Positions 1 to 52,719 are shown, counted from the first letter of the stretch. The stretch is 64,000 bases of DNA from an uncultured Gemmatimonadota bacterium (GCA_951812955.1 OX638340.1:2688001-2752000), one strand, 5' to 3'. Notes: generated from the letters alone by a model not told the origin. Numbers and translations are program-made.

Positions 1-397
1 CGAAGGTCGACAGCTTCGCTTCGCCGCGGCCATACTTGGGCTCGGTACGCAGATGGCCCAGCAGCGTGATGTTGTAGTTCAGTCCCCGTATTCCGGCTTC
101 GGAGGCCATGCGCACGGTCTCGCACATGCGGTCCAGCGCACGGTCCCGCTCATCGCTCTTTCCCAGAAATATGGCTCCAGCTTCGTTGTCGAAGGCACTG
201 GCGGAACCCAGGGGGATATGGATCATCTCCAGGTTGATCCCGTACCGGTCGAACCGTTCACGCTGGGCTTTGAGCAAGTCGGCCGTCCACTCGGACCAGG
301 GCTCCGAAGGCGTCTGGTCCACGTTGAACACGCCGAGTTGGGCCAGGACCTCGATATCCGTGTCGTTTCTGCACCGGGTCTGTGTTCCGATGTACAT
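1..397 (-). CDS. TIM-barrel sugar-acid dehydratase, mannonate dehydratase (UxuA)-like. N-terminal part only; the gene continues beyond the window start.
   Basis: The minus-strand ATG at 397 has a GGAGG RBS 6 nt upstream. The N-terminus MYIGTQTRCRNDTDIEVLAQLGV...ALDRMCETVRMASEAGIRGLNYNI matches the UxuA pattern TLRNLAQCGIRTVCYNF. The plus-strand ORF 53..475 is the antisense artefact. Confidence 0.45.
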   Translation of the reverse strand, partial: MYIGTQTRCRNDTDIEVLAQLGVFNVDQTPSEPWSEWTADLLKAQRERFDRYGINLEMIHIPLGSASAFDNEAGAIFLGKSDERDRALDRMCETVRMASEAGIRGLNYNITLLGHLRTEPKYGRGEAKLSTF

Positions 398-547
398 GTA
401 ATTCCTCCAAAAATGAATGGTGATGTATTACTCGTGGTGCGTCAGGACTATGGCGCGTTAGATTCGTGTTCGTGACGCGGCTTTCATGATCTCGCCGCAG
501 CTTGACCTCGTTCCGTCAAACCACGACTATAGCCCGGTTCTTGATCC

Positions 548-1966
548 TCAACCCGTTCCTTCAGCGACCTCTTCCGATTCCTTGCCAAAGAGCCGGACGC
601 GCTTTCCGGCCAGCATGTCTCGCAGTTTGCTGCGAATCGCCCAGAGACAGGCCAGAGATGGGATCACCATCAGCGTTGTAATGACGAAGAAGGTCCCCCA
701 GTCGCCATCGAGCCAGTCGACCATCGCGCCGGAGGAAGCCGCGAAGATGGTCCGTCCCGCCGTCCCGATCGACGCGAGCAGGGCGTACTGCGTGGCCGTG
801 TACGTCCGGTCGACGAGCAGGGAGATGAAGGCGACGAAGGTCACGGTTGCGAAGGCGCTGGTAAGGTCGTCTACCACGACTGCGGTCGCGAACAGCAGTT
901 CTGACCTGTCCGACCAGGCCATGGTGGCGAACAGGAGATTGGTCACCGCCATGGCGATTCCCGCGGCGAACATGGCCCGGACGAGTCCGATGCGGATCGC
1001 GAGGAAACTGCCCAGCACGGTGAAAGCCACGGTGACAACCCAGCCCAGTCCCTTGGAGTAGAGGGCGATGTCCGACTTGGAGAACCCGATCTCCTTGTAG
1101 AAAATGAGGGACATGCGTCCGAGGAAGGCCTCGCCGATCTTGAACAGGAAGATGAAACCGAGCACGGCGGCGGCGATGGCGTACCCGTTGCGCCGGAAGA
1201 AGCTGGTCAGCGGGTTGGCCACGGTGCCTGCGAACCAGGCGACGACACGGCTGTACCTGCTTGGAATATGAAGGTGGGAGATGATCTTTTCATCATCCTC
1301 CACCTGTGCCGCGATGCGTTCCGAGGCGGCGGTCTCATGTACGAAGAGGAGGCCGATGTTGCAGAGGATGACCAGGGCGCCCAGACAGAGAAAGGTGGCC
1401 TGCCAGTAGTCTTCGACGCCGGCGCCTTGAAAGGCTTCCGCTGCCTCCAGGGCGATTACGCCGCCCAGTTTGAAGCCCGTCCACCATCCGACGACGGCCG
1501 TAGCCGCCCCGGCGGCCATGGACTCGCTTTCCGTCTTGCCGATCTGCTCGATACGCAGCGCGTCGATGGCGATGTCCTGGGTGGCGGACGCGATGGCAAT
1601 GGCGAGCCCGATGGCGACCACGCCGCTGAGATCGGCCGTCGGCTGGGCGACGCTCCAGAGCACGAGGCAGGTGAGGATGACGGCCTGCAGCGCGAAGATC
1701 CACGCCCGTCGATGTCCAAGCCAGGCCGTCAACAGGGGTATCCGGACCCGATCGATCAGCGGCGCCCAGAGGAAGTTGACGGCGTAAACGGCGAAGATCA
1801 GGCTCGCCCAGCCTATCGTGGTGCGGGAAAGGCCCTCTTCCTTCAACCATAAATTGAGGCAACTGCCAATGAGCACCCAGGGAAAACCGCTGATGATGCC
1901 CAGCAGGAGGATGCGGGCCATACGGCGCTCGAAATAGATCGACAGCGATTCCAAAAAGCTCCGCAT
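548..1966 (-). CDS. ampG: AmpG-family muropeptide MFS permease
   Basis: Polytopic MFS protein with an AmpG-like N-terminus (MRSFLESLSIYFERRMARILLLGIISGFPW...). The start is ATG at 1966, so the track ORF's 85-aa N-extension is not used. Confidence 0.8.
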   Translation of the reverse strand: MRSFLESLSIYFERRMARILLLGIISGFPWVLIGSCLNLWLKEEGLSRTTIGWASLIFAVYAVNFLWAPLIDRVRIPLLTAWLGHRRAWIFALQAVILTCLVLWSVAQPTADLSGVVAIGLAIAIASATQDIAIDALRIEQIGKTESESMAAGAATAVVGWWTGFKLGGVIALEAAEAFQGAGVEDYWQATFLCLGALVILCNIGLLFVHETAASERIAAQVEDDEKIISHLHIPSRYSRVVAWFAGTVANPLTSFFRRNGYAIAAAVLGFIFLFKIGEAFLGRMSLIFYKEIGFSKSDIALYSKGLGWVVTVAFTVLGSFLAIRIGLVRAMFAAGIAMAVTNLLFATMAWSDRSELLFATAVVVDDLTSAFATVTFVAFISLLVDRTYTATQYALLASIGTAGRTIFAASSGAMVDWLDGDWGTFFVITTLMVIPSLACLWAIRSKLRDMLAGKRVRLFGKESEEVAEGTG

Positions 1967-2068
1967 GGGATGCTCCGAAGGGAGTTTGCTTCCGCCCCTG
2001 CCGTGGTTCGTGAAGGGCGGCGAAGACGACGGGAATGTATGCACGCGGGGCCATATCGTCAATCGAAT

Positions 2069-2108
2069 TGAAAGCAGCGCCAGCCGCGCGAAAGCAGCGC
2101 CAGCCGCG
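2069..2108. repeat. Perfect 20-bp tandem duplication (gaaagcagcgccagccgcgc x2) in the divergent ampG / cytochrome c-PCuAC intergenic region
   Basis: Direct reading of the sequence at 2069-2088 and 2089-2108. Confidence 0.8.
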
Positions 2109-2199
2109 CCCGGGCCCAGTCGCGCGCGCCCGGGAAGAACATGGCTTTCCGCCGGCGGTAGTCGTTGACAGAAAGGCGGAATATCGCTAGGATAAAGCC

Positions 2200-3069
2200 A
2201 TGTTTTCGGCTGGTACGACACGGGTGCGGTTGCCTCGGACGCTGCGGATCTGCGGCAGCATATTGGTCCTCTATGGACTGGTGTTCTGCCACTTCGGATG
2301 CGGTTCGTCTGGTTCGGAGGTGGATCCGAATGACAGAGAGGCCGTGGCCCGGGCGTTCTTGGACCAGTTGATCGAGGGCACGATCACGCCCGGAACGATC
2401 GGTTTCCACGAAGTACCCGAACAGTTCGTGCAGGATGGGAAGGCGTTGTATACCCGGTACGGCTGTACCGTGTGCCACGGCATGGACGGCCACGGGGACG
2501 GGCCGGTCGCCTATACGCTGAAGCCACCACCCCGCGACTTCAGGGACCCCGGCGCCTACCGCGTCGGCCGCGACGTGGTCACGATCGCCGGCACACTGAG
2601 GGACGGCATGCCCGACAGCCCGTCCATGGTGCCCTTCCCCCATATCAAGGACGAAGAGCGCTTCAAGATCGCCATGTACGTGGCTTCGCTGCAGCCGGCG
2701 GACGACCTGGAGATCGCCGGGACCTGGGTGCGGGCCACACCGCCGAACCGCGACGTTACCGCCGCCTACCTGGTGATCAAGAACCGGTCGGACCGGACCC
2801 GGGAATTGCTGTCCGTCGAGACGCCGGCCGCTGAATACACGGAACTGCATACCATGCGGTACGTAGACGACATGATGGAGATGGAAAAGATTGAACGCCT
2901 GGTGGTTCCAGCGCAGGGCGAGGCGGCATTGAAGCCTGGCGGAAACCACATCATGTTGTTCGGTGTGAAACGACAGATGGTGGAAGGCGATTCGGTATCC
3001 CTGACTCTGCGTTTCGCCGACCAGTCGACCCGGAACATTGTGGCCGAAGTGTTGAAAAGCAAACCATAG
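2200..3069 (+). CDS. Cytochrome c domain fused to a PCu(A)C copper chaperone (DUF461). Signal peptide/lipoprotein-like N-terminus.
   Basis: CTVCHG heme-binding motif in the N-terminal half. PCuAC-like H/M-rich region in the C-terminal half (ELHTM...MMEMEKIERL...GGNHIMLFG). Confidence 0.7.
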   Translation: MFSAGTTRVRLPRTLRICGSILVLYGLVFCHFGCGSSGSEVDPNDREAVARAFLDQLIEGTITPGTIGFHEVPEQFVQDGKALYTRYGCTVCHGMDGHGDGPVAYTLKPPPRDFRDPGAYRVGRDVVTIAGTLRDGMPDSPSMVPFPHIKDEERFKIAMYVASLQPADDLEIAGTWVRATPPNRDVTAAYLVIKNRSDRTRELLSVETPAAEYTELHTMRYVDDMMEMEKIERLVVPAQGEAALKPGGNHIMLFGVKRQMVEGDSVSLTLRFADQSTRNIVAEVLKSKP

Positions 3070-3206
3070 TACCTACAATATGTTGTGTGTAGTAGTGGAA
3101 AAAAGTACAACATGCTTGTCTAATAGGATTTATTTGGGATTTCACACCACAAACAACTATCTTATAGATACTTCCTCAATTCCGTATACCTATCCCCCTA
3201 GGGAGT

Positions 3207-3404
3207 ATGTACATGCCTCGATCTGAGTCCAAACGCGTACAAGAACATGAAGCCATGCTCCAAGAAGCACTATCCCGTCCTGGTGTTAAAGAGGTCATGG
3301 AGGTTTATAGAGGATGGCTAGAATCAGACCAGGGAATGACCCCATATCGTGTGGCTACTAAGGAACCTCATCGGATCACGACAACTAATTCCACTAATCA
3401 ATAA
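3207..3404 (+). CDS. Hypothetical small protein (65 aa), first gene of the AT-rich islet
   Basis: ATG preceded by GGGAG at 7 nt spacing. No recognisable motif. Confidence 0.45.
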   Translation: MYMPRSESKRVQEHEAMLQEALSRPGVKEVMEVYRGWLESDQGMTPYRVATKEPHRITTTNSTNQ

Positions 3405-3428
3405 ACAGTGTGACGCGGGAGCTATTCG

Positions 3429-4433
3429 TTGCCAATCTGGAGCGAAATCCTTAAAGAGTTGACACCGACACAAAATGGACTTCCAGTTGATTTTGATGGC
3501 GTTCGAAGGAAATATCTACTGAAACTCCATCAGCACACGGAACGGAATGTAATTCTGTACGCCTCAGGATGGCTTCAAGGGGAAGCCCCTCCTGCGCTTG
3601 TTTCAATAAATGATGAAGACATACAGGCGTTCATGGAAGTTAGTCACGGTCTACATGGAGATCAGCTCGATCTGATCCTACATAGCCCCGGAGGTTTTCC
3701 CGAAGCAGCCGAAGCGATCGTTGCGTATCTGAGGTCTCGATTTTCTCATATAAGAGTAATTGTTCCACAACTCGCAATGTCGGCAGCAACTATGATAGCA
3801 TGTGCTGCCGATAAGATCGTGTTAGGCAAGCATTCATTTCTCGGTCCTACTGATCCTCAGATAATGCTGGCAACCCCTCTAGGTGTGCGTTCAGTACCGG
3901 CTCAGTCTGTCCTGGATCAGTTTGATCGGGCCAAGAAGGAATGTTCCGACCCAGCCAAATTGTCGGCTTGGTTACCGATGTTAAGTCAATATGGTCCGGA
4001 TTTACTGGTTCAATGTGAGACCGCGTTAGAAATGTCTAAAGTGCTAGTGAAGTCTTGGTTGGAATCGTACATGTTTAAAGGGATGGATGATCGTAAATCA
4101 AGGGCGGAAAACGTCTCGACGTGGCTCGCTGATCACATGGAGTTCAAAAGCCACAGTCGACACATACCACGCGAAGAACTTGAAGACCACCAGTTGTCGA
4201 TATCTAGGTTGGAAGAAGATACGATATTGCAGGACATGAGCCTTTCAGTGTTTCATGCAACTACTCATACCTTTTCCGGCACCCCCGCTGTAAAGATCGT
4301 CGAGAACCATACAGGTCGTGCATTCATAAAACAAAATGTTACTCAACCGGTGCAGGTTGCCATGCAGCCAGTCCAGTCGATAGAAGTTGCACCAGTACCA
4401 CTAGTAATGCCCGAACATAGTGCCGATAGTTGA
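3429..4433 (+). CDS. SDH-family (serine dehydrogenase proteinase, S49/ClpP-fold) serine peptidase
   Basis: Motifs ILYASGWLQG, LILHSPGGFPEAAEAIVAYLRS and AMSAATMIACAADKIVLGKHSFLGPTDPQ are typical of the ClpP-fold SDH/S49 family. TTG start with GGGAG upstream. Low GC. Confidence 0.65.
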   Translation: MPIWSEILKELTPTQNGLPVDFDGVRRKYLLKLHQHTERNVILYASGWLQGEAPPALVSINDEDIQAFMEVSHGLHGDQLDLILHSPGGFPEAAEAIVAYLRSRFSHIRVIVPQLAMSAATMIACAADKIVLGKHSFLGPTDPQIMLATPLGVRSVPAQSVLDQFDRAKKECSDPAKLSAWLPMLSQYGPDLLVQCETALEMSKVLVKSWLESYMFKGMDDRKSRAENVSTWLADHMEFKSHSRHIPREELEDHQLSISRLEEDTILQDMSLSVFHATTHTFSGTPAVKIVENHTGRAFIKQNVTQPVQVAMQPVQSIEVAPVPLVMPEHSADS

Positions 4434-5076
4434 ACCTACCCTAGGCGGCGGGATTCCCACTCCTGTTCGACGGTACTTCTGCTATTATGTGATTTCGATC
4501 TGCGCGGCCCTGCTGCTCATTCCAGGATGCCGCACCGAATCCCCTCCTCCGTCCCAGATCGACGTCCCCGCACTCCTGGACTACGGCGAACGCTTCGGCG
4601 GCGATTTCACGCTGACCGACCAGGACGAAGCGCTATTCAACCTTTCTGAATACCGCGGCGACGCCTTCCTGATCTTCTTCGGCTACACCTTTTGCCCCGA
4701 TGCCTGCCCGCTCATGCTCTCCAAGCTGGCGGCCGTCTACGACGTGCTCGATCTCGAACCAGGCCAGCACGTACGCACGGTATACATCACCGTCGATCCA
4801 TCGCGCGACACGCCCGAGCAACTCAGAGAGTACCTGGCCTACTTCTCCACGGTGGACGTCCGCGGCCTGACGGGATCGCGGGAGGAGATCGACGAGGTCG
4901 CCGAACGGTACGGCGTGCTGTACAAACTGCAGGAGCCGAACGAGGCGGGGCACTACCTGGTGGCCCACACCACCACCCTGTTCCTGGTGGATACGGAGGG
5001 CCGCCTGCGTTTCCGGTTCCATCCAAGCGACACCCCGGAATACATCGCGGCGGGCGTGAAACTGCTCTTCGAATAG
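4420..5076 (+). CDS. SCO1/SenC copper chaperone (thioredoxin fold, CxxxC)
   Basis: FGYTFCPDACP motif and conserved C-terminal H. Lipoprotein-like signal (LLLIPGC). The exact start is uncertain: 4420 is GTG and overlaps the islet end, and alternative GTG starts lie downstream. Confidence 0.8.
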   Translation: MPIVEPTLGGGIPTPVRRYFCYYVISICAALLLIPGCRTESPPPSQIDVPALLDYGERFGGDFTLTDQDEALFNLSEYRGDAFLIFFGYTFCPDACPLMLSKLAAVYDVLDLEPGQHVRTVYITVDPSRDTPEQLREYLAYFSTVDVRGLTGSREEIDEVAERYGVLYKLQEPNEAGHYLVAHTTTLFLVDTEGRLRFRFHPSDTPEYIAAGVKLLFE

Positions 5077-5142
5077 CCCGAGGATCTCAGGTTTTTAGGG
5101 ACCGATCGTGGCTTGCGGGATAGCTGTGCTTGTTCTGAAGAC

Positions 5143-7545
5143 CTAATGCTCGCGCCGCAGCGCGTCCACCGGGTTCATCGTGGCGGCCTGAAGGGTCTGG
5201 GTACTCACCGTGATCCAGGCGATGAGCAGTCCGAGCAGGCCCGCGGCGGGGAACAACAGCAGCGAGATCTCGGTGTGATAGGCGTACTGCCGAAGCCACT
5301 GCTGCGTGACGAAGTAGGCCGCTGGCCAGGCGATGACGTTCGCAATTACCACGAGGATGGTGTATTCCCTTGAAAGTAGCAAGACGAGTTGCCGCGCCGA
5401 CGCGCCCAGGGCCTTCCGGATTCCCACCTCCCTGGTGCGCTGTTTCGCCGTGAAGACCGCAAGGCCGAACAGTCCGAGGCACGCCGTAAAGACCGCCAGC
5501 CCGGCAAACATGGTGACGAGCCGTCCCAGCAACTGATCCGAACGATACAGGCGTTCCACGTCCTGGTCGAGGAACGAATATACGAAGGGGATATCCGGCG
5601 TGGACGCCTTCCACATGGCTTCCAGGTCCCTCAAGGTTCCGCCGGGATCGCCGGGAACGAACCGCACGGCCCAGTAGCCGGAACCCCCGAAGGTGAAGAT
5701 TACCGGATCGATCCGCTCGTGGAGGCTCCTGAGGTGGAAGTCGCCCACCACCCCGACGACCTGCATCTCGCTGTTCCCCATTTTTACGAACTGATCCATG
5801 GCTTCTTCGGGCGATCCCCATCCCAGTCGACGGACCGCCTCCTCGTTCAGGAGACTTCCGGTCGATCTCCCCCATCCTCCTCCATCTGGGTCCTCGACCC
5901 ATTCGAAATCTCTTTCAAAGGATATGTCGCGTCCGACAAGCGACTCGAGCCCGAGCGTCCGTACAAGACCGCCCTCGGTATGGATGTGTTGCATCTCGAC
6001 CGTCCCCGCCGCCGGGTCGTCTACGCGGCCCACGGGCAGGATCGGCAGTCTCCCCCGGCCGGCCGCTCGTCCGGGCATGTAGTTCGCCCCGGCAACGCTG
6101 ACTACCCCGGCGTGCTGTGGGTAACGATCACGGATCATGTCGAAGTCCATGCCCTCGAGGTCGGGCAGGATCACCACGTGTTCCTTCTCGAATCCCAGGT
6201 GTTTCTCCCGCATGTACTCCAGCTGCTGGTAGACGGTTCCCGTGCCGAACATCAGCAGGATGGCCAGGGAGAATTGCATGACCACGAGGGCTTTTCGCAG
6301 GGTTGCGGCGCCGGTACCCGAAAGTCCGCGAAAGATCGCAACGGGACTGATCCGGGACAGCAGCAGGGCGGGGTAGGCGCCGGCGAGGACGCCCGCCGTG
6401 AGGATAATAGCCGTGCCGCCCAGAATTGACCACGGTTCGAGCGAAGGCATGGAAAGTACGTGGCCCGTCATGGACCGGAAGAGGGGCAGGACCACCCAGA
6501 CAGCGGCCAGGGCGACGAGGAACGCCACGGCACTCAGGAGTATGGTTTCACCCAGGAACTGGCGGCCGATCTGGCTTCTGGTGGCTCCTGAGACTTTGCG
6601 CATGCCGATTTCCCGGGCCCGGGAGATGGACCGGACAATCGCCAGATTCGTGAAATTCATGCAGGCAATCAGCAGGATGAAGACCGCGATGGCGATCAGC
6701 ATCCAGATGAAAGACACTTCGCCGTTTGCCTCCATCTCCAATTCCAGTTGAGAATGCAGATGGATATCGAAAAGCGGCTGCAATTCATAGGTGTGGGTAA
6801 AGGCCGTCGCCCGGACCGATGCGTCGACATGTTCCGTGAGCCGTGTCTGCAGCAGGTTGCCTATCTGTTCGGGCGAGACGCCGAGCGGCAGGAGCAGGTA
6901 GGTGTAGTACGCGCTGTTCGCCCAGTTTCTCAAAAGACCGATAGGATCGCCGCGTCCGGTCGTCGTGGCGATGGAGACGTAGAAATCGGGATGATAGTGG
7001 GCGTAAGGCGGTGGGTCTTCCATGATGGCGGTGATCGTGAAGGGAAACAGGTGGTCACCGGTGATCGTCTTGCCGATCGGGTCGGCGTCCCCGAAATACT
7101 TGCGGGCCATGGATGCGCTGATGACCATCGTATTCGGCGCCGTGAGCGCGGAGGAAGGGTTGCCGCGCACCAGGGAGACATCGAAGACTTCGAAGAGGTT
7201 GCCATCCGCCCAGTAGACCCGTTGCTCATAGAACTGCTTGTCTTCGGTGGTGAAAAGCCAGGTCCCCACGGTCGCCCGAAGGCGGAGCACTTGCTCCACT
7301 TCGGGAAGCTGCGTACCGATGAAGTCGCCCAGAATGCCGGGCGTCCGCGCCGTGCGATCCGTGACGACCCGGTATATACGGTCGCCGCGGGAGTTGTGCC
7401 GGTCGTAGCTCAACTCGTCGCGGATGTACAGCAGGATGACCAGGCAGCAGGCCATGCCGATGGCGAACCCGATGACGTTGATCGCGGCGTGGGACCTGGA
7501 CGAGAGTACGTTCCGCCAGGCGGTTAGGAGGTAGTGTCCGATCAT
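5143..7545 (-). CDS. ABC transporter permease, FtsX/MacB-like, with two FtsX domains (800 aa)
   Basis: N-terminal TM followed by a MacB-type periplasmic domain and repeated FtsX 4-TM modules. Typical 800-aa standalone permease. Confidence 0.8.
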   Translation of the reverse strand: MIGHYLLTAWRNVLSSRSHAAINVIGFAIGMACCLVILLYIRDELSYDRHNSRGDRIYRVVTDRTARTPGILGDFIGTQLPEVEQVLRLRATVGTWLFTTEDKQFYEQRVYWADGNLFEVFDVSLVRGNPSSALTAPNTMVISASMARKYFGDADPIGKTITGDHLFPFTITAIMEDPPPYAHYHPDFYVSIATTTGRGDPIGLLRNWANSAYYTYLLLPLGVSPEQIGNLLQTRLTEHVDASVRATAFTHTYELQPLFDIHLHSQLELEMEANGEVSFIWMLIAIAVFILLIACMNFTNLAIVRSISRAREIGMRKVSGATRSQIGRQFLGETILLSAVAFLVALAAVWVVLPLFRSMTGHVLSMPSLEPWSILGGTAIILTAGVLAGAYPALLLSRISPVAIFRGLSGTGAATLRKALVVMQFSLAILLMFGTGTVYQQLEYMREKHLGFEKEHVVILPDLEGMDFDMIRDRYPQHAGVVSVAGANYMPGRAAGRGRLPILPVGRVDDPAAGTVEMQHIHTEGGLVRTLGLESLVGRDISFERDFEWVEDPDGGGWGRSTGSLLNEEAVRRLGWGSPEEAMDQFVKMGNSEMQVVGVVGDFHLRSLHERIDPVIFTFGGSGYWAVRFVPGDPGGTLRDLEAMWKASTPDIPFVYSFLDQDVERLYRSDQLLGRLVTMFAGLAVFTACLGLFGLAVFTAKQRTREVGIRKALGASARQLVLLLSREYTILVVIANVIAWPAAYFVTQQWLRQYAYHTEISLLLFPAAGLLGLLIAWITVSTQTLQAATMNPVDALRREH

Positions 7546-7671
7546 GGGTGATGCCGCCGCAGTGAGGAATGCTGCCGGGAAAACAGCCAGGGGTCCCTCA
7601 AGATACCAACGACACAGCCGGAATGTCCACCAGTTTGCGGTGCTGGAAGCCGCCGGGAGGCCAGGGCTCGC

Positions 7672-8778
7672 TTAAGGCGCCAGCCTGTTCCAGTGGACGT
7701 CCATGGCCGTTTCGGTACCCGCGTAGTACACCACCAGGACCGTGCCGTCGGGCAGGGCTTCCGCATAGGGCAGGCCGAAGGACCACACCGAGAAGCCCAG
7801 GGCGCCCTTGGGATCTTCCTTAGGCGCCTCGTGGGTATACAGGGTCACCTCGGTTTCCGGATCGAACGTCCCGTCGATGGAAGGCGCGACGCGGGCCTTG
7901 ATGGACTGGTCGTGGAAGCGGTCCACCCACGGCAGGACGATGCGTCCGTCCGGCAGCACCGCGGGATGGGCCGCCTGGTCGGTGACGCCGATGTCTTCCG
8001 GCGCGGACCAGGTTCGCCCGCCGTCGGAGCTGACGCGGCGGTGAATGTTCAGGTAGGATTCCGTTTCGGTGTTGTAGGTCCAGGCGAACGCACCGATTCT
8101 GCCGTCCGGCGCCACGGCCGACCGCAGATCCCAGTTGTAGATCAGGCCCGTCGGATCGAACCCGATGTTCACCGGTTCACCCCAGGTCCTTCCCCCGTCC
8201 GTGGAGTGAAATGCGACGACCCGCTGGTACCATTTCGAGGTGTCGAGGTAGTGCTTGTTGGTTTCGATGGTCATGACCAGGGCGCCGTCCGGAAGTTGCA
8301 TGATTGGATTGGTCAGGCTCGCCGGTCCAATCTCCTCCGGCATGGGTACCTCGCGCCACGCCGTCCAGGTTTTTCCCCCGTCCGCGGAGTCCGCCAGGAG
8401 GATGGACATGGGCACGCAGCCCTCGGTCTCCGGATTGAAGAGTCCCGGGGCGTCAGGATAGGTTTCGCGGTCGATCCACATTGATGCGGCGATGATCCGT
8501 CCGGGCGCCAGTTCAGTCAGGTAGACGATCTTGACCGTCCCCCGGACTCCGTGAAGCGTTGGGCTTCCGAAGGGGCGTTCGGGTGCGCTCCAGGTCTTTC
8601 CGAGATCGGAGGAGCGGCTGAGTTCCACCACTTCGTCCGCGCAGTCCTTCGTCGTGCCGCTGTGCCAGGTGGCGATCAGCGTGCCGTCGGTCTTGCTAAG
8701 GACTGAGGGGAACGTGAGATTGGCCCGGTCCGTGCCGGGCGTGCTGCGGCTGAGGACGCCGGAGTCGACGATGCGCAT
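7672..8778 (-). CDS. BNR/Asp-box repeat glycoside hydrolase, sialidase-like
   Basis: Four SxDxGxTW Asp-box motifs (SSDLGKTWS, SADGGKTWT, STDGGRTWG, SSDGGRTWS). Confidence 0.7.
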   Translation of the reverse strand: MRIVDSGVLSRSTPGTDRANLTFPSVLSKTDGTLIATWHSGTTKDCADEVVELSRSSDLGKTWSAPERPFGSPTLHGVRGTVKIVYLTELAPGRIIAASMWIDRETYPDAPGLFNPETEGCVPMSILLADSADGGKTWTAWREVPMPEEIGPASLTNPIMQLPDGALVMTIETNKHYLDTSKWYQRVVAFHSTDGGRTWGEPVNIGFDPTGLIYNWDLRSAVAPDGRIGAFAWTYNTETESYLNIHRRVSSDGGRTWSAPEDIGVTDQAAHPAVLPDGRIVLPWVDRFHDQSIKARVAPSIDGTFDPETEVTLYTHEAPKEDPKGALGFSVWSFGLPYAEALPDGTVLVVYYAGTETAMDVHWNRLAP

Positions 8779-8819
8779 GGTGGCTGGCCTTTCGAGATTG
8801 GTTGTTAAACCTTTTTCAG

Positions 8820-8866
8820 TTCGGATGTGCCTTCACGATTCGGATGTGCCTTCCATGTTCGGATCC
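8820..8866. repeat. Short tandem repeat (ttcggatgtgccttc x2 plus a partial third copy) upstream of the sialidase-like gene
   Basis: Direct reading of the sequence. Confidence 0.6.
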
Positions 8867-8891
8867 GGCAAGGATCCAATCCGGGTACCGA

Positions 8892-10883
8892 TCAGACCCG
8901 TTTGATCCCCTCGCACAGATCGATCATGGCGGAGAGGATGGATTCCGCCAGGCAGTCGATGGCTTCCCGTGTTCCCGCGATGTCTACCGAGGCCGCCGAA
9001 ACGTAGCACTTGACCGTGGGTTCGGTGCCCGACGGTCGCACGATGACCCGCGTATGTCCGGACTCAGAAAAGGTGAAGACCAGGATATCCGCGCGATCGC
9101 CGTCAACGGGCGTAGTCGTTCCCGTTCGCAGATCCTGCGCCTGGCCGCTCTGCCGGTCGATCACGCGGCAAACGGCGCGTCCGCCTATCCGCTCGGGAGG
9201 CGCTTCACGCAGCGCGGCCATCATGCCTTCGATCCTCCGTGTGCCCTCCGCGCCGGGCAGCGCGACCGACCGCTGGACTTCCCTGAAATATCCGTACGTT
9301 CGGTAGATATCGTCCAGTTCATCGCGCAGGGTGCGGTTGTCCTTCTTCGCCAGGGCGGCGAACTCGGCGAGCAGGATGCCGGTGGCAGCCTCCTTGTCCC
9401 GTATCCGGGCGTCGGCCAGATAGCCGTGGCTTTCCTCGGTACCGAACACGAAGGACATATCCGGCGGCAAGCCTTCGATCGCCGCGCCAACGTGTTTGAA
9501 ACCGATGGGCAGGTCGTCGATGACCTCCAGTCTGAAGGACCGGGCGATGATCGAGGCAAGGTCCGAGGTGACCAGCGTCTTGCAGAACAGACCCCTAGGG
9601 GGCAGCGTACCCGCCGCTTGCTTCCGGCTGAGTATGTAGTGGCAGAGGAGGACGCCGATCTGGTGACCGTTTAAACTCAGTTCTTCCGGCGGAGCTTCCC
9701 ATCCCCTGTCCGGCAGCGGCAGCGCGCACCCGATCCGGTCGGCGTCGGGGTCGCTCGCGAGCACGAGGTCCGCGCCGACTTCCGCGGCTTTTCTGAAGCC
9801 CAATTGAAAGGCCGCCGGTTTTTCGGGGTTTGCGATCCCATGGTCCAGCGTGGAGAACGCACCGTCCGGGACGACCTGCTCATCCACGTAGTGCACGTCC
9901 TCATAACCCAGCTTATCCAGTGCCGCGGCCACCGAGGTCATGCCCACGCCGTGCAGTGGGGTATACACCACACGCACGTCTCGGCCATCGGCCAGCGACA
10001 GGTCCGACAGGACGCCGATATACCCCTCGTCCAGGTCCCTGCCGATGATCCGGATCAGGCCGTTTCGGAGGCCTTCTTCGTAGTCGATCCGCCTGATCTC
10101 ACCGGCCTGCCTCATCTCTCTCGTGATGTCCCCGTCCCGGGGCGCCACCACCTGCCCCCCGTCGGGTCCGTAAACCTTGAATCCGTTGTCTTCGGGTGGA
10201 TTGTGGCTCGCGCTGATCATCACACCGGCCGCCGCCCGGAGTTCGCGGACGGCGAAGGAAAGCGCGGGGGTGGAGCGAAAACCGTCGAAGATCAGGACGT
10301 CTATGCCGTTGGCGGCCAGCACGCCGGCCGTCTCTTTCGCAAACAACTCCGAATTGCGCCGGGTGTCCCATGCCACGACGACGCCGCGCGCCCCAGCGGG
10401 ACCGCGGTGATTTTCACTAACTTGCCCATCACCGCCTTGCCCATCGCCCTCGAGCCCTGCACCGACACGTTCCCCGTCGCCATCGTCGCCCTGCCCATCG
10501 CCGCCTCGCCCATCACCTTCGCGCTCTGCACCGACGCGATCCCTGTCGCGCTCTGCACCCTCGCGATCCCCATCGCCTCTCCCCATCATCCCGGTGACAT
10601 ACCTGGCCAGTCCCTGTGCCGCCAGGCCCACGGTGTGGGTGTTGAGCCGGTTCGGCCCCGGTCCCATCCGACCTCGGATGCCGCCCGTTCCAAAGGAGAG
10701 GACCGAACCGAATGCGTCCTCCAGTTCGTCGGTGCCGCCGGCATCGATGAGGGCATGGATCTCATCCCGGTACGCCGCGAGGCCGGGCTCCGTAGACCAT
10801 AGTACCAGGGCATCCGAGGCCGCACGGGACAGGATGCCGTTTTCGGTCCAGGCGTTGATCCTGCTGACGCGTTGTTGATTCAT
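8892..10883 (-). CDS. Phosphoglucomutase/phosphomannomutase-family alpha-D-phosphohexomutase, with a low-complexity insertion
   Basis: N-terminus ...AFGSVLSFGTGGIRG and the active-site ISASHNPPEDNGFKVY are as expected. ATG at 10883, so the track ORF's 105-aa N-extension is rejected. A Gly/Asp/Arg-rich insertion of about 65 aa is present. Confidence 0.8.
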   Translation of the reverse strand: MNQQRVSRINAWTENGILSRAASDALVLWSTEPGLAAYRDEIHALIDAGGTDELEDAFGSVLSFGTGGIRGRMGPGPNRLNTHTVGLAAQGLARYVTGMMGRGDGDREGAERDRDRVGAEREGDGRGGDGQGDDGDGERVGAGLEGDGQGGDGQVSENHRGPAGARGVVVAWDTRRNSELFAKETAGVLAANGIDVLIFDGFRSTPALSFAVRELRAAAGVMISASHNPPEDNGFKVYGPDGGQVVAPRDGDITREMRQAGEIRRIDYEEGLRNGLIRIIGRDLDEGYIGVLSDLSLADGRDVRVVYTPLHGVGMTSVAAALDKLGYEDVHYVDEQVVPDGAFSTLDHGIANPEKPAAFQLGFRKAAEVGADLVLASDPDADRIGCALPLPDRGWEAPPEELSLNGHQIGVLLCHYILSRKQAAGTLPPRGLFCKTLVTSDLASIIARSFRLEVIDDLPIGFKHVGAAIEGLPPDMSFVFGTEESHGYLADARIRDKEAATGILLAEFAALAKKDNRTLRDELDDIYRTYGYFREVQRSVALPGAEGTRRIEGMMAALREAPPERIGGRAVCRVIDRQSGQAQDLRTGTTTPVDGDRADILVFTFSESGHTRVIVRPSGTEPTVKCYVSAASVDIAGTREAIDCLAESILSAMIDLCEGIKRV
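10400..10605. repeat. Degenerate tandem repeat (about 63-bp period) encoding a [GDRE]-rich insertion inside the phosphohexomutase gene
   Basis: Repeated gccctgcaccgacacgttccccgtcgcc-like units. The encoded protein segment is GRGDGDREGAERDRDRVGAEREGDGRGGDGQGDDGDGERVGAGLEGDGQGGDGQ. Confidence 0.7.
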
Positions 10884-10951
10884 CTCATGAGAGGAGGATT
10901 GGGAAACCGCGGTCGAGCGCCACGTTTTCCATGTGGAGTTCCGTGTCCCCT

Positions 10952-12907
10952 TTAGAAGAACTGGAGTTCGTGTATTGACCCTCGAAAATACCAGAAGTCC
11001 ACCAGGATCGCAACGGCGGCGCCGAGGACATAGCCTACCATGATGCCGATCATCAGCGGCTGGACAGCCTGGTAGAGGCGTACACCGCCTACCCTGATCA
11101 GTATGGTTTTCAACAGCCAGGCCAGAAAGACGGGAAAGAATGCGTTGCGCGCGGGACCGCCGGCGGCCACCACGAAACCGATAGGCGAAATGGGCCACCA
11201 GCTGAAGTAATAGCGGGCAACGCTCATACCCGTGACCATGGCCATGCCCACGACCAGGAAGAACACCTCCGCACCCGAAATGGTGGTACTGTTCTGCATC
11301 CAGGTTATGATCAAGTTATAGAAACCGGGGTCTCCGGCGATATTGTTGTAGTAATTCGCCGCACCGCCCAGCCGGTATCCGGAATAGGCCGAAAAACCGA
11401 TGGCCGTAATCGAGCTGACGACGAAGGTGACCGATGCCCAGAAGAACAGGACCCGTCCGGAGACGCCGAGTATGGACTGCATCCGCGCGACGTGGGAGGG
11501 GATGATCATCGTAAAGGTCTTCCAGTTGCGTGCAAAAGCGCTTCCCAAGCCCAGGGCCGTCAGGTTCTGCGGCGACAGTGAGGCGGAGCCCAGCATGCCC
11601 ACAGTAAACTGGTGGGCGTTGATGGGCAGGTCCAGGAAGACCAGCCCCGATTCCGCCATCACGCGGCACAGTGCGAAGTAGAAGAGGAAAAGCAGGACGA
11701 GAAAGACGGCGATCACCGGGAAGGACATGCCGATCACGTGCAGCCACCAGGAGATATAGGCCATGCCGCAGACGCCCGTGACCAGGGCCGCCCGGTAGGA
11801 AATGAACTCGTCTTCGTCGCGCAGGTTCGTTTCGTGTCCCCGTACGTGGCGCCACACCATCGCCAGGTGCCGCCGCGCGATCCAGAAACCCCAGAGCGCG
11901 AAGGCGATCATGCCCCCGATGAACTGCACGGCGACCAGTCCGCCCGGTATGGCCGTACCCGAGGCTGCGACAACGCCGACCCGGGCCAGGATGCCCTGCT
12001 GTAGCGTATTGATGATCTGGAACAGCCACACGCTGAAAAGGATATCCACGTTGATGAAGTAGGAGAAGGCAAAGGTGAGGACGTTCATTCGGATTGGATG
12101 CGCCGGAAAAGCATGTCCGAAATTAACGCTGAGCACGGTGCTCGCGTCGACGGGAAAGGACGACCACTGGGTCCAGTATGATGCGGTGTTCCAGAGCATG
12201 ATGGAGAAGGTGACCACCGCGCCGGTGATGAACATGCGGTTTCGCATGATCGTCGGCAGGACGGCGTCCGGCTCATCCTTCGTTTCCGTCATGACGACCG
12301 GCGCCTGGACGAGGGGATAGGAAAGCCGCTCGTGCTCGACCCACTGCCTGCGCATCAGGATGACGAAGCAGATGCCCACGGCCAGGAGGCCGCCAAAGAA
12401 AGACAGCCACCAGAACGACGGAATGATCCAGGCCGCCCAGGGGATCGGCATGCTTTCTGGTAGGCCCCAGTAATAGTCCCGGTTCGCGTTCTGTTCGTTC
12501 GTGACGATGAGCCAGTCGGGCAGATAGGCGAAGAACATCTCGCGCCACTGGTTCTCGGGCGACGCGAAGTATTCCGCCGTGGCCATCACGTTCACGACGT
12601 AGTTGGACATGCCCCAGGTCGGCACCATGAAACCGACCCAGCCAAGTACGAAAACGAAGAGTACTTCTTTGTCCCGCAATCCCAATGACGGACGGATCGC
12701 CTTGACCAGCAGGTTGGGACCCAGGACACCCAGCAGGAAGGGAATCAGCAGGGCGAGATCTATGTGGGCGAAGGTAAGGTGCACATACCCCAGGTGGTAG
12801 TTGCTCGACACGGAGAAAAGATTGACGACGACGGCCAGGGCCAGGCCCGCCGCCACCGCCCGGGGCGTTACCACCTTCGAGGAGGTTCTTTGTTCCAGTT
12901 CGCTCAT
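10952..12907 (-). CDS. Uncharacterised polytopic membrane protein (651 aa), paralog A of a tandem pair
   Basis: At least 12 predicted TM segments. Conserved blocks (NANRDYYWGLP, FSYFINVDILFSVWLFQIINTL, YYFSWWPISPIGFVVAAGGP) are shared with the downstream paralog. Confidence 0.7.
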   Translation of the reverse strand: MSELEQRTSSKVVTPRAVAAGLALAVVVNLFSVSSNYHLGYVHLTFAHIDLALLIPFLLGVLGPNLLVKAIRPSLGLRDKEVLFVFVLGWVGFMVPTWGMSNYVVNVMATAEYFASPENQWREMFFAYLPDWLIVTNEQNANRDYYWGLPESMPIPWAAWIIPSFWWLSFFGGLLAVGICFVILMRRQWVEHERLSYPLVQAPVVMTETKDEPDAVLPTIMRNRMFITGAVVTFSIMLWNTASYWTQWSSFPVDASTVLSVNFGHAFPAHPIRMNVLTFAFSYFINVDILFSVWLFQIINTLQQGILARVGVVAASGTAIPGGLVAVQFIGGMIAFALWGFWIARRHLAMVWRHVRGHETNLRDEDEFISYRAALVTGVCGMAYISWWLHVIGMSFPVIAVFLVLLFLFYFALCRVMAESGLVFLDLPINAHQFTVGMLGSASLSPQNLTALGLGSAFARNWKTFTMIIPSHVARMQSILGVSGRVLFFWASVTFVVSSITAIGFSAYSGYRLGGAANYYNNIAGDPGFYNLIITWMQNSTTISGAEVFFLVVGMAMVTGMSVARYYFSWWPISPIGFVVAAGGPARNAFFPVFLAWLLKTILIRVGGVRLYQAVQPLMIGIMVGYVLGAAVAILVDFWYFRGSIHELQFF

Positions 12908-20651: not shown

Positions 20652-21300
20652 GACGGGATATGAGTATCAGAACCGCAATCCGAATCAAAGTCAACTGAGA
20701 TTGAACGACATAAACGAGTTACGGTCAGCAAAGAATAGTTTACCCTAACTGCTGATATTCGTACATTTTGTTGACGAGCATTTGACTCCAAGTTCTAACG
20801 ATACTTCGCATGCGATGCGTGTTTTTCAAACCAAAGATCGTGTTGGAAGTGTTATACTGAGTGAGGATACGTGTGAATTGCCGACGAGATTCCTGACAAA
20901 AACTTAATAGAATTTGGCCACAAAGGAGACTGTTATGTCTGAGGATAGACATACTTCCAGAGAGCAGAACGATATAGAAATCAAGAGTGTAAACGAAGAT
21001 TCGCCAGGAATCGAGACTATGCCCGATATTACCCCGGAGATGATTTCGCCAAATCCTCCCCAAAGCAACAGTGAGAACAACCAGCACGATCAAACAGGGT
21101 CATCAAATGTAGAAAGTGACTAAGATGTCGAGTTCAGTTCAGGCGATATAGAGTGGGTGCAATTGCACAAGAAAAAGTAACAAATAAAACTGTATTCAAC
21201 CGCTTGATTAGAATCCTTGTTAAGACTGGCAGCAGACCCTTTTCACTTGACTTGAAAGACCTCTCGCCCTACCATGGTGCAGTTGTTTAGGGAGATATCG
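20652..21300. other. AT-rich segment between the metallophosphoesterase operon and the tRNA genes
   Basis: Compositional shift to roughly 40-45% GC. Confidence 0.6.
20935..21123 (+). CDS. Small acidic, S/N/Q/P-rich hypothetical protein (62 aa)
   Basis: ATG preceded by AAAGGAG at 6 nt spacing. Composition is atypical for this genome. The track ORF begins at an upstream TTG (20914). Confidence 0.35.
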   Translation: MSEDRHTSREQNDIEIKSVNEDSPGIETMPDITPEMISPNPPQSNSENNQHDQTGSSNVESD

Positions 21301-21309
21301 GGAAGGTAT

Positions 21310-21396: not shown

Positions 21397-21435
21397 TTCG
21401 GGGTCGTGAACAAACTGGTGAATGCTGGATATGCA

Positions 21436-52696: not shown

Positions 52697-52719
52697 ATCT
52701 ATGACGCGCTCTGCGCAAG

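Follow-up and report, generated by a model that had tools for sequence, protein, structure and literature searches.

A low-GC small-protein–peptidase gene pair between PCuAC and SCO1: a candidate accessory module in conflicts between bacteria and mobile elements

In the window – the whole 64-kb stretch of DNA analysed here – two host genes for copper chaperones, PCuAC and SCO1, are separated by a pair of genes whose composition is unlike that of either neighbour. What is this pair, how did it come to lie here, and does it serve its copper-handling neighbours or something else? We take it, with a confidence somewhat better than even, to be an accessory module that acts where bacteria and mobile elements are in conflict – in anti-phage or abortive-infection defence, or in closely related addiction – present here as an old, horizontally acquired cassette with no copper role; defence itself is a candidate function, read from gene context only.

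An old, foreign islet and its empty counterpart

A first-pass annotation of this DNA had described a low-GC, two-gene islet at 3070–4440, and base composition bears this out. The segment has a GC of 0.462, against 0.610 for the whole window and 61–63% for the flanks, and it is the lowest 1371-bp stretch of the 64 kb: sliding 1371-bp GC has a mean of 0.610 (sd 0.033), and its minimum of 0.460 falls on 3070–4440. Codon usage, which the annotation had proposed as a check, deviates in the same way, with a GC3 of 0.38 in the small open reading frame (ORF) and 0.43 in the peptidase gene vs 0.80–0.81 in PCuAC and SCO1. The features of the locus are as follows.

2200–3069, + strand: cytochrome c and PCuAC copper-chaperone fusion, 289 aa, left-flank host gene (PF04314 5e-36, PF00034 4.9e-8)
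3052–3079, + strand: promoter-like TTGAAA-16 nt-TACAAT (10/12 matches; 1 site found vs 2.3 expected by chance)
3057–4502, + strand: haplotype-specific block, 1446 bp (blastn of the window vs the empty-site contig L068)
3080–3113, no strand assigned: inverted repeat ATGTTGT-N20-ACAACAT, possible operator (arms 3080–3086 and 3107–3113; seen in the sequence)
3157–3168, no strand assigned: conserved non-coding block CTATCTTATAGA, nearly invariant in 5 orthologous loci
3213–3404, + strand: small partner gene, 63 aa from ATG 3213 (65 aa if from ATG 3207)
3417–3421, + strand: Shine-Dalgarno-like GGGAG, 7 nt ahead of the peptidase TTG start
3429–4433, + strand: SDH-type ClpP-fold serine peptidase, 334 aa, soluble (PF01972)
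4420–5076, + strand: SCO1/SenC lipoprotein, right-flank host gene (PF02630 8.9e-41)

A sponge-metagenome contig about 95% identical to the window, L068, provides the empty site that the annotation had anticipated in a related genome: in it, the stop codon of PCuAC and the start codon of SCO1 overlap, and the cassette is missing. Alignment of the window with L068 by blastn covers 1–3056 and 4503–7610 with nothing in between, homology on the PCuAC side stopping at 3056, and window positions 3057–4502 (GC 0.463) are replaced in L068 by 107 bp. The limits given earlier held for the low GC and for the suspected overlap with SCO1, whose GTG start and the peptidase 3′ end share 14 nt, but not for the extent of the foreign block. 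Since that block spans 3057–4502, the cassette haplotype takes in the three final codons of PCuAC and, at the other end, the initial ~28 codons of SCO1. The 5′ end of SCO1 is altered, as had been suspected: its signal-peptide region differs wholly between the cassette and empty haplotypes, the N-terminus MPIVEPTLGGG...LLLIPGC being common to the window and its cassette-bearing relatives, and MMDGLIENVMRRFGRY...LLLLPGC being that of L068. The low GC and the empty site in a close relative mark the cassette as foreign.

The cassette occupies the same site in four relatives: L005, L006 and L041, in which synteny extends over 10 kb including the cassette, and L004, a short contig. As all four carry the pair at this site, the arrangement goes back to the ancestor of a clade. 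The annotation had named an ancestral arrangement at host-like GC as the outcome that would speak against it, and of this the shared site is found, but not the GC, which is 46–48% in these relatives' cassettes and not host-like. A recent insertion was considered and rejected, since the four syntenic relatives have the cassette and cassette divergence equals or exceeds flank divergence; the insertion is old. Purifying selection on both genes is strong, with dN/dS of 0.064–0.068 for the peptidase and 0.09–0.16 for the small gene (dS ~0.6–1.2), and GC3 is still near 0.42, vs 0.8 in the neighbours, despite synonymous divergence near saturation. In two of the four same-site relatives (L006 and L041) the peptidase gene is a pseudogene next to an intact small gene.

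Affinities vary along the locus, the small protein and upstream region being nearer to L004/L006 and PCuAC nearer to L005/L041; per-segment DNA identities are too alike to discriminate import of the cassette from an L004- or L006-like donor. Close relatives probably swap the cassette-bearing and empty haplotypes through homologous recombination within the genes on either side. The locus is a clear instance of an old insertion that rewired an operon: the cassette broke PCuAC–SCO1 translational coupling, SCO1 gained a new start codon and signal-peptide region, and amelioration of GC was resisted.

Upstream of the small gene, the promoter-like site straddles the junction: its −10 hexamer, TACAAT, lies in inserted DNA and is invariant in the 5 orthologous loci, and its −35 hexamer, TTGAAA, lies in the PCuAC 3′ end and is not kept in L005 and L041. 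The CTATCTTATAGA block may, together with TTGGGA (3134–3139), form an alternative weak promoter. The inverted repeat had been placed at 3095–3140, which proved incorrect; its actual arms (3080–3086 and 3107–3113) are invariant in the window, L004, L005, L006 and L041, and cassettes in other contexts lack the repeat in their upstream DNA. No common motif emerged from the 180 nt upstream of ~45 loci, and the region 2900–4700, AT-rich leader included, matched no Rfam family.

The earlier statement that no integrase or transposase is present also stands: none was found among the neighbouring genes, which beyond PCuAC and SCO1 encode an MFS transporter and a MacB/FtsX permease. Nor were any tRNAs found in window positions 1–12000, or terminal repeats of at least 9 nt at the cassette. 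The sole flanking direct repeat, ACCTAC (6 nt, 3071–3076 and 4435–4440), is at chance level, and its right copy is missing in L005/L041. An autonomous or site-specific mobile element was rejected on the grounds of the missing terminal repeats, the chance-level direct repeat and the lack of a common upstream motif.

Two proteins that travel together

The assignment of the 334-aa protein to the SDH family is upheld by PF01972 (SDH_protease), which scores 68.2 bits vs a gathering score of 31.3 (E 7.7e-19) and aligns residues 79–169 to profile positions 93–175 of 286; the TTG start gives a conserved N-terminus, MPIW. A PHROG family, phrog_11747, matches across the full length (1e-87). The NCBIfam model NF047768 (Clp_like_SDH) gives 77 bits vs an equivalog cut-off of 250, and by its sequence the peptidase belongs to a subfamily distinct from that equivalog; NF045542 (head-maturation protease) gives 40.7 vs a cut-off of 120. 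The fold is of the ClpP/crotonase type, with an extra helical region (175–285), a disordered stretch at 310–334 and no membrane segment, anchor or signal peptide. S118 (in AMSAA), D142 (in GPTDPQ) and then H242 and H276 show little or no variation among 40–47 homologues, and the HSPGG oxyanion motif is conserved in the family. With S118, D142 and an invariant His (H85, H242 or H276) as candidate catalytic residues, in addition to HSPGG and the ClpP fold, the protein looks like an active protease.

The small ORF is there, as annotated, although it most likely encodes 63 rather than 65 aa (MPRSES...). ATG 3213 is preferred as the start because it has the more Shine-Dalgarno-like spacing – the GGGAG at 3201–3205 lies 7 nt from it and just 1 nt from ATG 3207 – and because the closest homologues are likewise 63 aa long, with N-termini MPQSES or MPPSES. 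The small protein is taken to be cytoplasmic, and an AF2 model (mean pLDDT 69) predicts helices at 5–22, 27–42 and 45–51, followed by a disordered, Thr/Ser/Asn-rich tail that carries the conserved motif TTT(N/D)xxN.

Database searches place neither protein in a described system. A profile search with the small protein gathered 475 clusters, 0 of them with a Pfam domain; a fold search with its model, of moderate confidence at pLDDT 69, returned no structural match, and tblastn against phage genomes gave chance-level matches only. PADLOC-DB v2.0 yielded no match with the small protein and none with the peptidase beyond a spurious one (E 0.027), neither protein showed a toxin or antitoxin domain in Pfam, NCBIfam, PADLOC or PHROGs, and a sequence search against solved structures found no match. 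The exact sequence of the window peptidase is not on record. The profile libraries and literature searched contained no description of the pair and no functional study of the peptidase family.

What the two proteins have in common is each other's company. In about 50 of 61 genome-scan loci, tblastn placed the small protein upstream of the peptidase, and a hidden Markov model (HMM) of it matched directly upstream in 57 loci, one of them a Klebsiella prophage, whose copy consists of WP_032426283 and WP_008807825; all remaining distant homologues (Bacteroidota, Chlorobiota, Pseudomonas, Acidiphilium and Gordonia phage) have an ORF of 58–78 aa abutting the peptidase start. The small ORF and the peptidase are thus an obligate, conserved two-gene unit, present in essentially every homologous locus examined – the co-occurrence on which the annotation had made its defence hypothesis depend – and a compact one of ~1.2 kb. 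The spacer from the small-gene stop to the peptidase start is usually 9–31 nt (~24 nt in the window), and some loci abut or overlap.

The family is large, with ~455 clusters at 50% identity (E up to 1e-30). When 8000 candidates were scored at the 90% clustering level, 7245 proteins had E ≤ 0.001, and the best 120 of those 8000 were all 68–94% identical to the window peptidase. Homologues occur in metagenome-assembled genomes (MAGs) of more than 10 phyla, mostly sponge symbionts, and in prophages and plasmids; amino-acid identity is 60–92% across Latescibacterota, Acidobacteriota, Poribacteria, Binatia, Chloroflexota, Proteobacteria, Spirochaetia and others. As the close-homologue scan demanded an exact match of 8 residues with the query, its sample is skewed towards the sponge-microbiome clade. 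A distant DNA search of E. coli genomes with the Klebsiella copy found no match. Cassette GC is below that of the flanks in 34 of 39 loci. The cassette spreads between phyla, a single cassette being common to more than 10 phyla of sponge symbionts at 60–90% identity.

Genomic contexts and competing explanations

Beyond the copper locus, the company that the pair keeps is suggestive. Hma genes adjoin the cassette in ~10 of 39 distinct contexts (a raw tally), with matches to HmaA and HmaB at E=0 and to HmaC at 1e-248; same-strand hma genes bracket the cassette in L013, L014/L055 and L046, and in L013 it shares the locus with HEC-01. Other neighbours include a type IIG restriction-modification enzyme, ATPases resembling PD-T4-4 and AriA, a PD-Lambda-2_B-like protein, HEC-01, NERD and MmeI-family proteins, and a type I restriction-modification system with integrases, as well as genes of toxin–antitoxin type (HicAB, RES-Xre, SocA/Panacea, DUF5615 and an AbiEii-like ATPase). 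Roughly one context in two, P0088 and the window itself among them, is without a recognisable defence neighbour.

The pair is also carried by mobile elements, phage-borne copies making up 7 of 50,697 phage records. It lies in the nin region of a lambdoid Klebsiella prophage, is present in a Mu-like Shewanella phage and in Gordonia phage BeeGee, adjoins HicAB in Porphyromonas phages and sits beside an integrase in a Pseudomonas element and beside a RES-Xre toxin–antitoxin pair on an Acidiphilium plasmid. Phage copies follow the tail genes, sit in the early or nin region or adjoin HicAB, and are not in the portal/scaffold/capsid module. The family is also found in prophages of clinical Klebsiella and Pseudomonas.

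The annotation's proposal of an accessory or defence module gains from these contexts: because the pair recurs in anti-phage systems and in prophages across phyla, it is a good candidate for a protease-based defence or addiction module. Of the cassettes embedded in Hma that have been tested, 7 of 9 gave phage protection (Payne et al., bioRxiv 10.1101/2024.01.29.577857). Sponge-microbiome communities are known to be rich in defence genes (PMC5099237, PMC5649159). Defence genes with a fast turnover are less typically retained by vertical descent for so long, and under such strong purifying selection, as the pair has been at the copper locus.

In the favoured reading, the unit moves as two genes with their own promoter into Hma systems, restriction-modification and toxin–antitoxin neighbourhoods and the accessory slots of prophages. 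A plausible mechanism can be sketched. The small protein would be the dedicated partner of the peptidase, restraining it by a tail that lies in the active site or is cleaved there; once infection set in, or the partner was no longer made, the unrestrained protease would cleave targets in the phage or the host. By analogy with other ClpP-fold proteases, discussed below, gating of the protease by its small partner is probable.

Could the pair instead be purely an addiction module, in which the protease is the toxin or a degrader of antitoxin, the small protein a labile antitoxin or inhibitor, and the outcome stabilisation of the surrounding island with no phage protection? The gene order (small gene first, short spacer, own promoter, possible operator repeat), the frequent position beside toxin–antitoxin genes and the long retention at one site under strong purifying selection would all fit. 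However, loss is tolerated, as the peptidase pseudogenes in L006 and L041 and the clean loss in L068 indicate, neither protein has a known toxin or antitoxin domain, and the inverted repeat is conserved in one clade only, so that we regard a pure addiction role as unlikely. Many toxin–antitoxin modules double as abortive-infection systems, and for that reason this explanation overlaps with the one we favour; as such modules have the same genomic signatures, defence proper and addiction are not separable here. An origin in phages is a different matter: the pair would serve the mobile element itself – in superinfection exclusion, anti-defence, or a virion or lysogeny role – and chromosomal copies would be prophage remnants. 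The full-length PHROG match, the copies in Gordonia, Shewanella and Porphyromonas phages and the Klebsiella prophage, and a weak likeness to ClpP-type head-maturation proteases (E 1e-8 to 1e-10) point in this direction. Yet the phage copies lie in accessory regions and not beside capsid or portal genes, only 7 of the 50,697 phage records have the pair, most copies are lone two-gene islets without other phage genes, and a same-strand position between hma genes is not expected of an anti-defence gene; we consider this origin distinctly improbable.

Two further explanations involve no genetic conflict. The concentration of close homologues in sponge-symbiont MAGs of many phyla, the strong purifying selection and the existence of purely metabolic contexts would suit a niche-adaptive protease (adapted, for example, to the sponge host) of regulated proteolysis or quality control, working with the small protein as adaptor or chaperone. 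But the sponge bias stems in part from the scan's need for exact query peptide words, distant members occur in elements of Klebsiella, Pseudomonas, Gordonia and Porphyromonas that are unrelated to sponges, and Hma embedding and adjacency to restriction-modification genes are left unexplained, which makes such a role a rather remote prospect. Finally, an S49/SppA-like peptidase might process the signal peptides of PCuAC and SCO1 or mature these proteins, as its position between them, on the same strand, overlapping the SCO1 start and shared by five related genomes, could be taken to imply. This is very hard to reconcile with the closest relative, which does without the cassette and still has PCuAC and SCO1 translationally coupled, with at least 39 other contexts without copper genes, with the foreign composition and the pseudogene in two of the four same-site relatives, and with a peptidase that has no membrane anchor or signal peptide when its supposed substrates are exported; we give it scarcely any credence.

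Known defence effectors are mostly nucleases, NADases, membrane disruptors and ATPase-coupled modules. If the reading as an accessory conflict module is true, a stand-alone ClpP-fold protease with a miniature partner would bring both a new effector and a new sensor logic. A more far-reaching version can be imagined, in which the pair is the founding case of a new immune or addiction class – a self-compartmentalising, soluble, ClpP-fold (SDH-type) protease that a ~63-aa pseudo-substrate partner keeps inactive until phage infection releases it – that has recently spread on a massive scale between phyla in sponge microbiomes and whose AT-rich coding is kept by selection, however long its stay in a 63% GC genome; this version is tentative, and on balance we doubt it.

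Relation to known systems

Among characterised families, the closest to the peptidase are the SDH-type proteinases (PF01972; NF047768; MEROPS S49-related), with which it shares the core (~78–171), the ClpP fold and HSPGG; its candidate catalytic residues Ser118 and Asp142, followed by invariant His residues, are conserved as well. It differs from them in aligning to the 286-position profile over ~90 residues, in adding a helical region and a disordered tail, and in being soluble and always preceded by the gene for a ~65-aa partner.

In genomic placement, the nearest parallel is with the Hma-embedded candidates HEC-01 to HEC-09, which likewise are short, same-strand cassettes between hma genes in several lineages and also occur outside Hma. 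Unlike these HEC and PDC systems, neither cassette protein is matched by a PADLOC v2 model, and the putative effector here is a ClpP-fold protease rather than the ATPase, nuclease or RNase of HEC systems. The survey of Hma-embedded cassettes was based on a RefSeq set (Payne et al., bioRxiv 10.1101/2024.01.29.577857), from which uncultured sponge symbionts, the source of most copies here, are largely absent.

For the proposed gating, the models are other ClpP-fold enzymes that act on protein tails. The peptidase of this cassette would resemble NfeD (protease 1510-N), a ClpP-fold protease that is encoded beside stomatin and cleaves the C-terminal region of the latter (PDB 2DEO). In SppA, C-termini are bound in the active sites. 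The conserved tail of the small partner may be viewed by analogy with both, although these two are membrane-associated enzymes that rely on a Ser-Lys dyad, whereas the window peptidase is soluble and of SDH type, and the partner of NfeD is stomatin, whereas here it is a 63-aa, soluble, helical protein and putative substrate.

Phage prohead proteases (NF045542; phrog_94, phrog_1684) have the same fold, are weakly similar in sequence near the catalytic Ser (E 1e-8 to 1e-10) and likewise occur in phages, but the pair is not found by portal, scaffold or capsid genes, and the great majority of its copies are chromosomal two-gene islets. The release of a protease upon infection or loss of a partner, as proposed here, would recall Lit of prophage e14 and type II toxin–antitoxin systems with protease-labile antitoxins, which also occupy prophage accessory slots and toxin–antitoxin-rich islands – a likeness read from gene context. 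Lit, however, is a zinc metalloprotease, of an unrelated protease class, and no domains shared with the present pair were found.

The low-GC cassette and its two proteins

The stretch at 3070-4440 has a GC content of 46.2%, the window average being 61.0%, and the minimum of 1371-bp sliding windows (0.460; mean 0.610, sd 0.033) falls upon it. This agrees with the islet of about 45% GC described in the first-pass annotation, whose gene order was also recovered in full:

2200-3069: cytochrome c and PCuAC fusion, 289 aa
3207/3213-3404: small ORF
3429-4433: peptidase, 334 aa
4420-5076: SCO1, with a GTG start

SCO1 overlaps the peptidase stop by 14 nt, as had been suspected. The small ORF is real, but probably not its proposed length of 65 aa: the most likely start is ATG 3213, giving 63 aa, because GGGAG at 3201-3205 lies 7 nt before it and the nearest homologues are 63 aa long, with the N-terminus MPQSES or MPPSES. 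The TTG start of the peptidase is judged right, since its MPIW N-terminus is conserved across about 45 loci. In this clade, the cassette has its own conserved upstream region – TACAAT at 3074-3079, an inverted repeat at 3080-3113 and a block at 3157-3168 – although the repeat arms, formerly placed at 3095-3140, actually lie at 3080-3086 and 3107-3113. Nearby genes encode an MFS transporter and a MacB/FtsX permease, and no integrase or transposase (as noted before), tRNA or Rfam element was found near the cassette.

The peptidase proved to be a member of the SDH family, as proposed, passing the PF01972 (SDH_protease) cut-off with 68 versus 31.3 bits over residues 79-169 only; it also matches phrog_11747 (function unknown) over its full length (1e-87). 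It misses the NCBIfam SDH-family proteinase equivalog by a wide margin (77 versus 250 bits) and therefore represents a separate subfamily. The confident structural model (pLDDT 87) comprises a ClpP-type alpha/beta core (~40-170), a helical region (175-285), a final beta-hairpin and a disordered Pro/Val/Gln-rich tail (310-334). The near-invariant residues – H85-S-P-G-G, S118 in AMSAA, G139-P-x-D142-P-Q, H242-x-R244, H276 and K289 – are compatible with a putative Ser-Asp-His enzyme. No signal peptide or membrane segment is predicted (the maximum 19-residue Kyte-Doolittle value, 1.57, falls on the catalytic helix), so the annotation of the Klebsiella homologue as a 'periplasmic serine protease' is probably wrong. 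The small protein, whose model (pLDDT 69) has three helices and then a disordered tail, has no match in Pfam, NCBIfam, PADLOC or PHROGs and no structural match in a fold search; its conserved core, ML..AL.RPGV.EVM.VY..W...D.GL..YR.A, is followed by (I/V)TTT(N/D)xxN.

Two further depressed-GC stretches were seen in the window. One, at 52397-53844 (GC about 0.49-0.51), holds a 240-aa DNA/RNA non-specific endonuclease on the plus strand (53122-53844; PF01223, 1.6e-43) and, beside it on the minus strand, a 137-aa ORF without a Pfam match (52397-52810); a further accessory toxin-immunity pair, or a further defence islet, is a possible reading. The other, at ~20700-21500 (about 0.51), has no convincing ORF and lies downstream of a 458-aa Metallophos-like gene (19275-20651).

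Age at the site and the empty haplotype

The cassette occupies the same site in four MAG loci: L004 (annotated Caldilineaceae; a short contig), L005, L006 and L041, the last three sharing 10-kb synteny with the window (DNA identity 80-90%) in a single unbroken alignment that takes in the cassette. Cassette identity (80-89%) is on par with that of the flanks (80-91%), which, together with synteny and dS, places the pair at this site since before these genomes diverged. Both cassette genes are under strong purifying selection.

Nei-Gojobori estimates for the cassette genes and their neighbours
Peptidase: dN/dS 0.064-0.068; dS 0.59-0.97
Small gene: dN/dS 0.09-0.16; dS 0.58-1.2
PCuAC: dN/dS 0.25-0.27; dS 0.46-0.49
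SCO1: dN/dS 0.09-0.16; dS 0.34-0.51

It had been reasoned that the same two genes at this site in relatives, at host-like GC, would speak for an ancestral arrangement. The pair is indeed there, but its GC is not host-like: peptidase GC3 is 0.41-0.44 in the five orthologous copies (window 3429-4433, L004:1221-2225, L005:5001-6005, L006 and L041), and that of neighbouring genes 0.80-0.89. The cassette shows no amelioration, for all its long stay at the site and a synonymous divergence close to saturation. Across contexts its GC tracks that of the host (r = 0.74), and in 34 of 39 it is lower than flanking GC, with a mean difference of 6.5 points. L006 and L041 have a frameshifted peptidase gene (5001-5998 in both); when the pair decays, the protease seems to go first.

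An empty site was found by scanning metagenome contigs with a SCO1 alignment. This locus, L068 (MKWU01001512.1), shares 93-96% identity with the window wherever the two can be aligned within 1-9000; MKWU and LXNJ are sponge metagenomes (Horn et al. 2016; Slaby et al. 2017; PMC5099237, PMC5649159). Here the cassette is missing, the PCuAC stop overlaps the SCO1 start (GTGATG), and 107 unrelated bp replace window 3057-4502 (1446 bp), in keeping with the suggested foreign insertion between two otherwise abutting genes. The last three PCuAC codons also differ, as does the whole n- and h-region of the SCO1 lipoprotein signal peptide (MPIVEPTLGGGIPTPVRRYFCYYVISICAALLLIPGC in the window, MMDGLIENVMRRFGRYMVRQDRSWPHPCVSAMLAAGLLLLPGC in L068), so the anticipated alteration of the SCO1 5' end is observed.

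So different a signal-peptide region in genomes ~95% identical implies two old haplotypes shuffled by recombination. The sharp bounds of the difference (~3056 and ~4503, with about 95% identity elsewhere) suggest that old alleles were exchanged through homologous recombination in the genes on either side, and disfavour a new transposition. Translation of PCuAC and SCO1 is coupled in the empty haplotype; in the window the two genes are 1.35 kb apart, with the start codon of SCO1 within the peptidase gene. No terminator-like site was found downstream of the peptidase gene, and SCO1 is now probably expressed by read-through, either out of the cassette or from PCuAC.

Some smaller features of the locus were recorded. 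The PCuAC protein carries a c-type cytochrome domain at its N-terminus (CxxCH motif at residues ~89-93), a fusion kept in L005, L041 and L068. Between L068:3875-3981 and window 4420-4502 (the SCO1 signal peptide) there is only a faint RR(Y)F..Y.V...LLL(I/L)PGC likeness. A 6-nt direct repeat, ACCTAC, flanks the cassette (3071-3076 and 4435-4440), too short to tell a target-site duplication from chance; it is present on both sides in L006, on both sides as CCTAC in L004, and on the left side only in L005 and L041.

Pairing, spread and genomic neighbourhoods

Relatives of the peptidase number >7,000 at the 90% clustering level (the best 120 all 68-94% identical); at the 50% level there are 455 representatives at E <= 1e-30 and 4,652 at E <= 1e-3. 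A scan of species-representative genomes, which requires exact 8-residue words from the query and is therefore biased towards its clade, returned 61 loci, nearly all in MAGs with names indicating sponge symbionts (Poribacteria, Latescibacterota, Binatia, Bryobacterales, Caldilineaceae, Dehalococcoidia, Arenicellales, Spongiihabitans, Poriferihabitans, Rhodothermales, Gemmatimonadota, Spirochaetia and Opitutales). At the amino-acid level they are 60-92% identical to the query, far more than vertical descent across phyla would allow, and the cassette has thus been transferred between phyla. The scan suggests, with its method favouring the query's clade, a gene pool shared within the sponge microbiome. 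By title, homologues at least 60% identical (L004-L064, L068, L069) are almost all from sponge-associated MAGs or metagenomes of >10 phyla, again in a scan that favours that clade. Frameshifted or truncated peptidase genes also occur in L036, L045, L046, L049, L054 and L056-L059, the upstream small gene usually being open.

By tblastn, the small protein is encoded immediately before the peptidase in about 50 of the 61 loci; an HMM brings the number to 57 loci, among them a Klebsiella prophage (E 1.5e-6). In the remaining distant homologues (Bacteroidota, Chlorobiota, a Pseudomonas element, an Acidiphilium plasmid and Gordonia phage BeeGee, where it is unannotated), a 58-78-aa ORF, mostly with an S/T/N-rich C-terminus, always ends at the peptidase start. 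The spacer is usually 9-31 nt, a few loci abutting or overlapping, and a profile search with the small protein found 475 clusters (63-105 aa), none with a Pfam domain. The pair is an obligate two-gene unit, a co-occurrence on which the earlier defence proposal had leaned. Upstream of the small gene the DNA shows no conservation from one context to another, and hence no shared end of an element was recognised. The BeeGee ORF (58 aa; L065:3825-4001; MW601219.1 26498-26674) overlaps the beginning of the peptidase homologue, gene 31; both its location and an S/T-rich tail, YSTSATR, suggest that it corresponds to the small partner.

At 39 distinct loci the ORFs closest to the pair, two per side, were called and scanned. 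Genes of the anti-phage system Hma – HmaA (SNF2 helicase, E=0), HmaB (DUF1156 methylase, E=0) and HmaC (DUF499 ATPase, 1e-248) – adjoin the cassette in 10 of these loci, on the same strand except in L034. The list below adds three more homologues, read from their gene tables (P0034, P0067 and P0088), and the phage, element and plasmid copies of annotated records.

Neighbourhoods of the pair
L013: HmaA, pair, HmaB, HEC-01 (an embedded defence candidate)
L014 and L055: HmaC, 301-aa gene, pair, HmaB
L046: HmaA fragment, pair, HmaB
L017: pair, HmaB
L018: HmaA, pair, type IIG restriction-modification enzyme
L023: HmaA, pair, 183-aa gene, PD-Lambda-2_B-like protein
L029: HmaC, pair, ATPase resembling PD-T4-4 and AriA
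L052: HmaB, pair
L034: HmaB on the opposite strand
P0034: MmeI-family restriction-modification enzyme, DUF4268, NERD, 184-aa gene, pair
P0067: type I restriction-modification with embedded Mrr gene, pair, two tyrosine integrases (IS110 in one copy)
P0088: ordinary metabolic context
Klebsiella lambdoid prophage: nin region, between DnaB/HTH genes and Q antiterminator
Shewanella Mu-like phage: early region
Gordonia phage BeeGee: after tail genes
Porphyromonas phages: adjoining HicAB
Pseudomonas element: adjoining integrase
Acidiphilium plasmid: adjoining RES-Xre toxin-antitoxin pair and IS1 element

Neighbours at further loci include NOV_C, HEPN_Swt1, SMODS, an AbiEii-like ATPase, DUF5615 and SocA/Panacea. 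The 301-aa ORF between HmaC and the cassette (L014:3621-4526; same context in L055), without a Pfam or PADLOC match, is another Hma-embedded gene.

Embedded genes occur in 62.7% of Hma systems; 22.8% of them encode known defence systems, 96.7% are oriented like the flanking system, and 7 of 9 tested candidates protected E. coli against phage (Payne et al., bioRxiv 10.1101/2024.01.29.577857). Hma itself is rare (1,485 systems in 234,099 genomes; same source) yet present in about a quarter of the contexts here, a strong association when judged by that frequency. Within the contexts covered, the pair is enriched inside defence systems and prophage accessory-gene slots; its recurrence in or beside Hma, restriction-modification and toxin-antitoxin genes and in prophage slots upholds the initial view of a candidate accessory or defence module. 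Neither protein matches a PADLOC v2 model, including the HEC and PDC (phage-defence) candidates.

Possible function and known systems

The pair varies between close relatives, and we infer that it acts in conflict with phages or other mobile elements. A pure addiction role is possible, as are a role serving the phages that carry it and a niche-adaptive protease. Maturation of the copper chaperones, the function its position here might suggest, is very unlikely: the nearest relative has an empty site, at least 39 contexts are without copper genes, the enzyme is cytoplasmic, and the peptidase is a pseudogene in two of the four same-site relatives.

Both the protease superfamily and embedded defence cassettes as a phenomenon are already known; this pair is absent from the defence-model libraries queried, and no description of it was found in the papers searched. 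As a candidate protease-based defence or addiction cassette, it is of interest mainly for being compact, widespread, strongly conserved and directly testable, and secondarily for having spread among the phyla of sponge symbionts and for its unexplained failure to ameliorate in GC.

As to mechanism, the tail of the small protein might engage the protease active site as a substrate or pseudo-substrate, and the partner would thereby gate the protease. We offer such gating tentatively, as a rather doubtful proposal drawn from the conserved tail, the tight gene coupling and analogy with two known systems: the NfeD protease 1510-N, which cuts the stomatin of the adjacent gene in its C-terminal region, and SppA, which has been crystallised with C-termini bound in its active sites.
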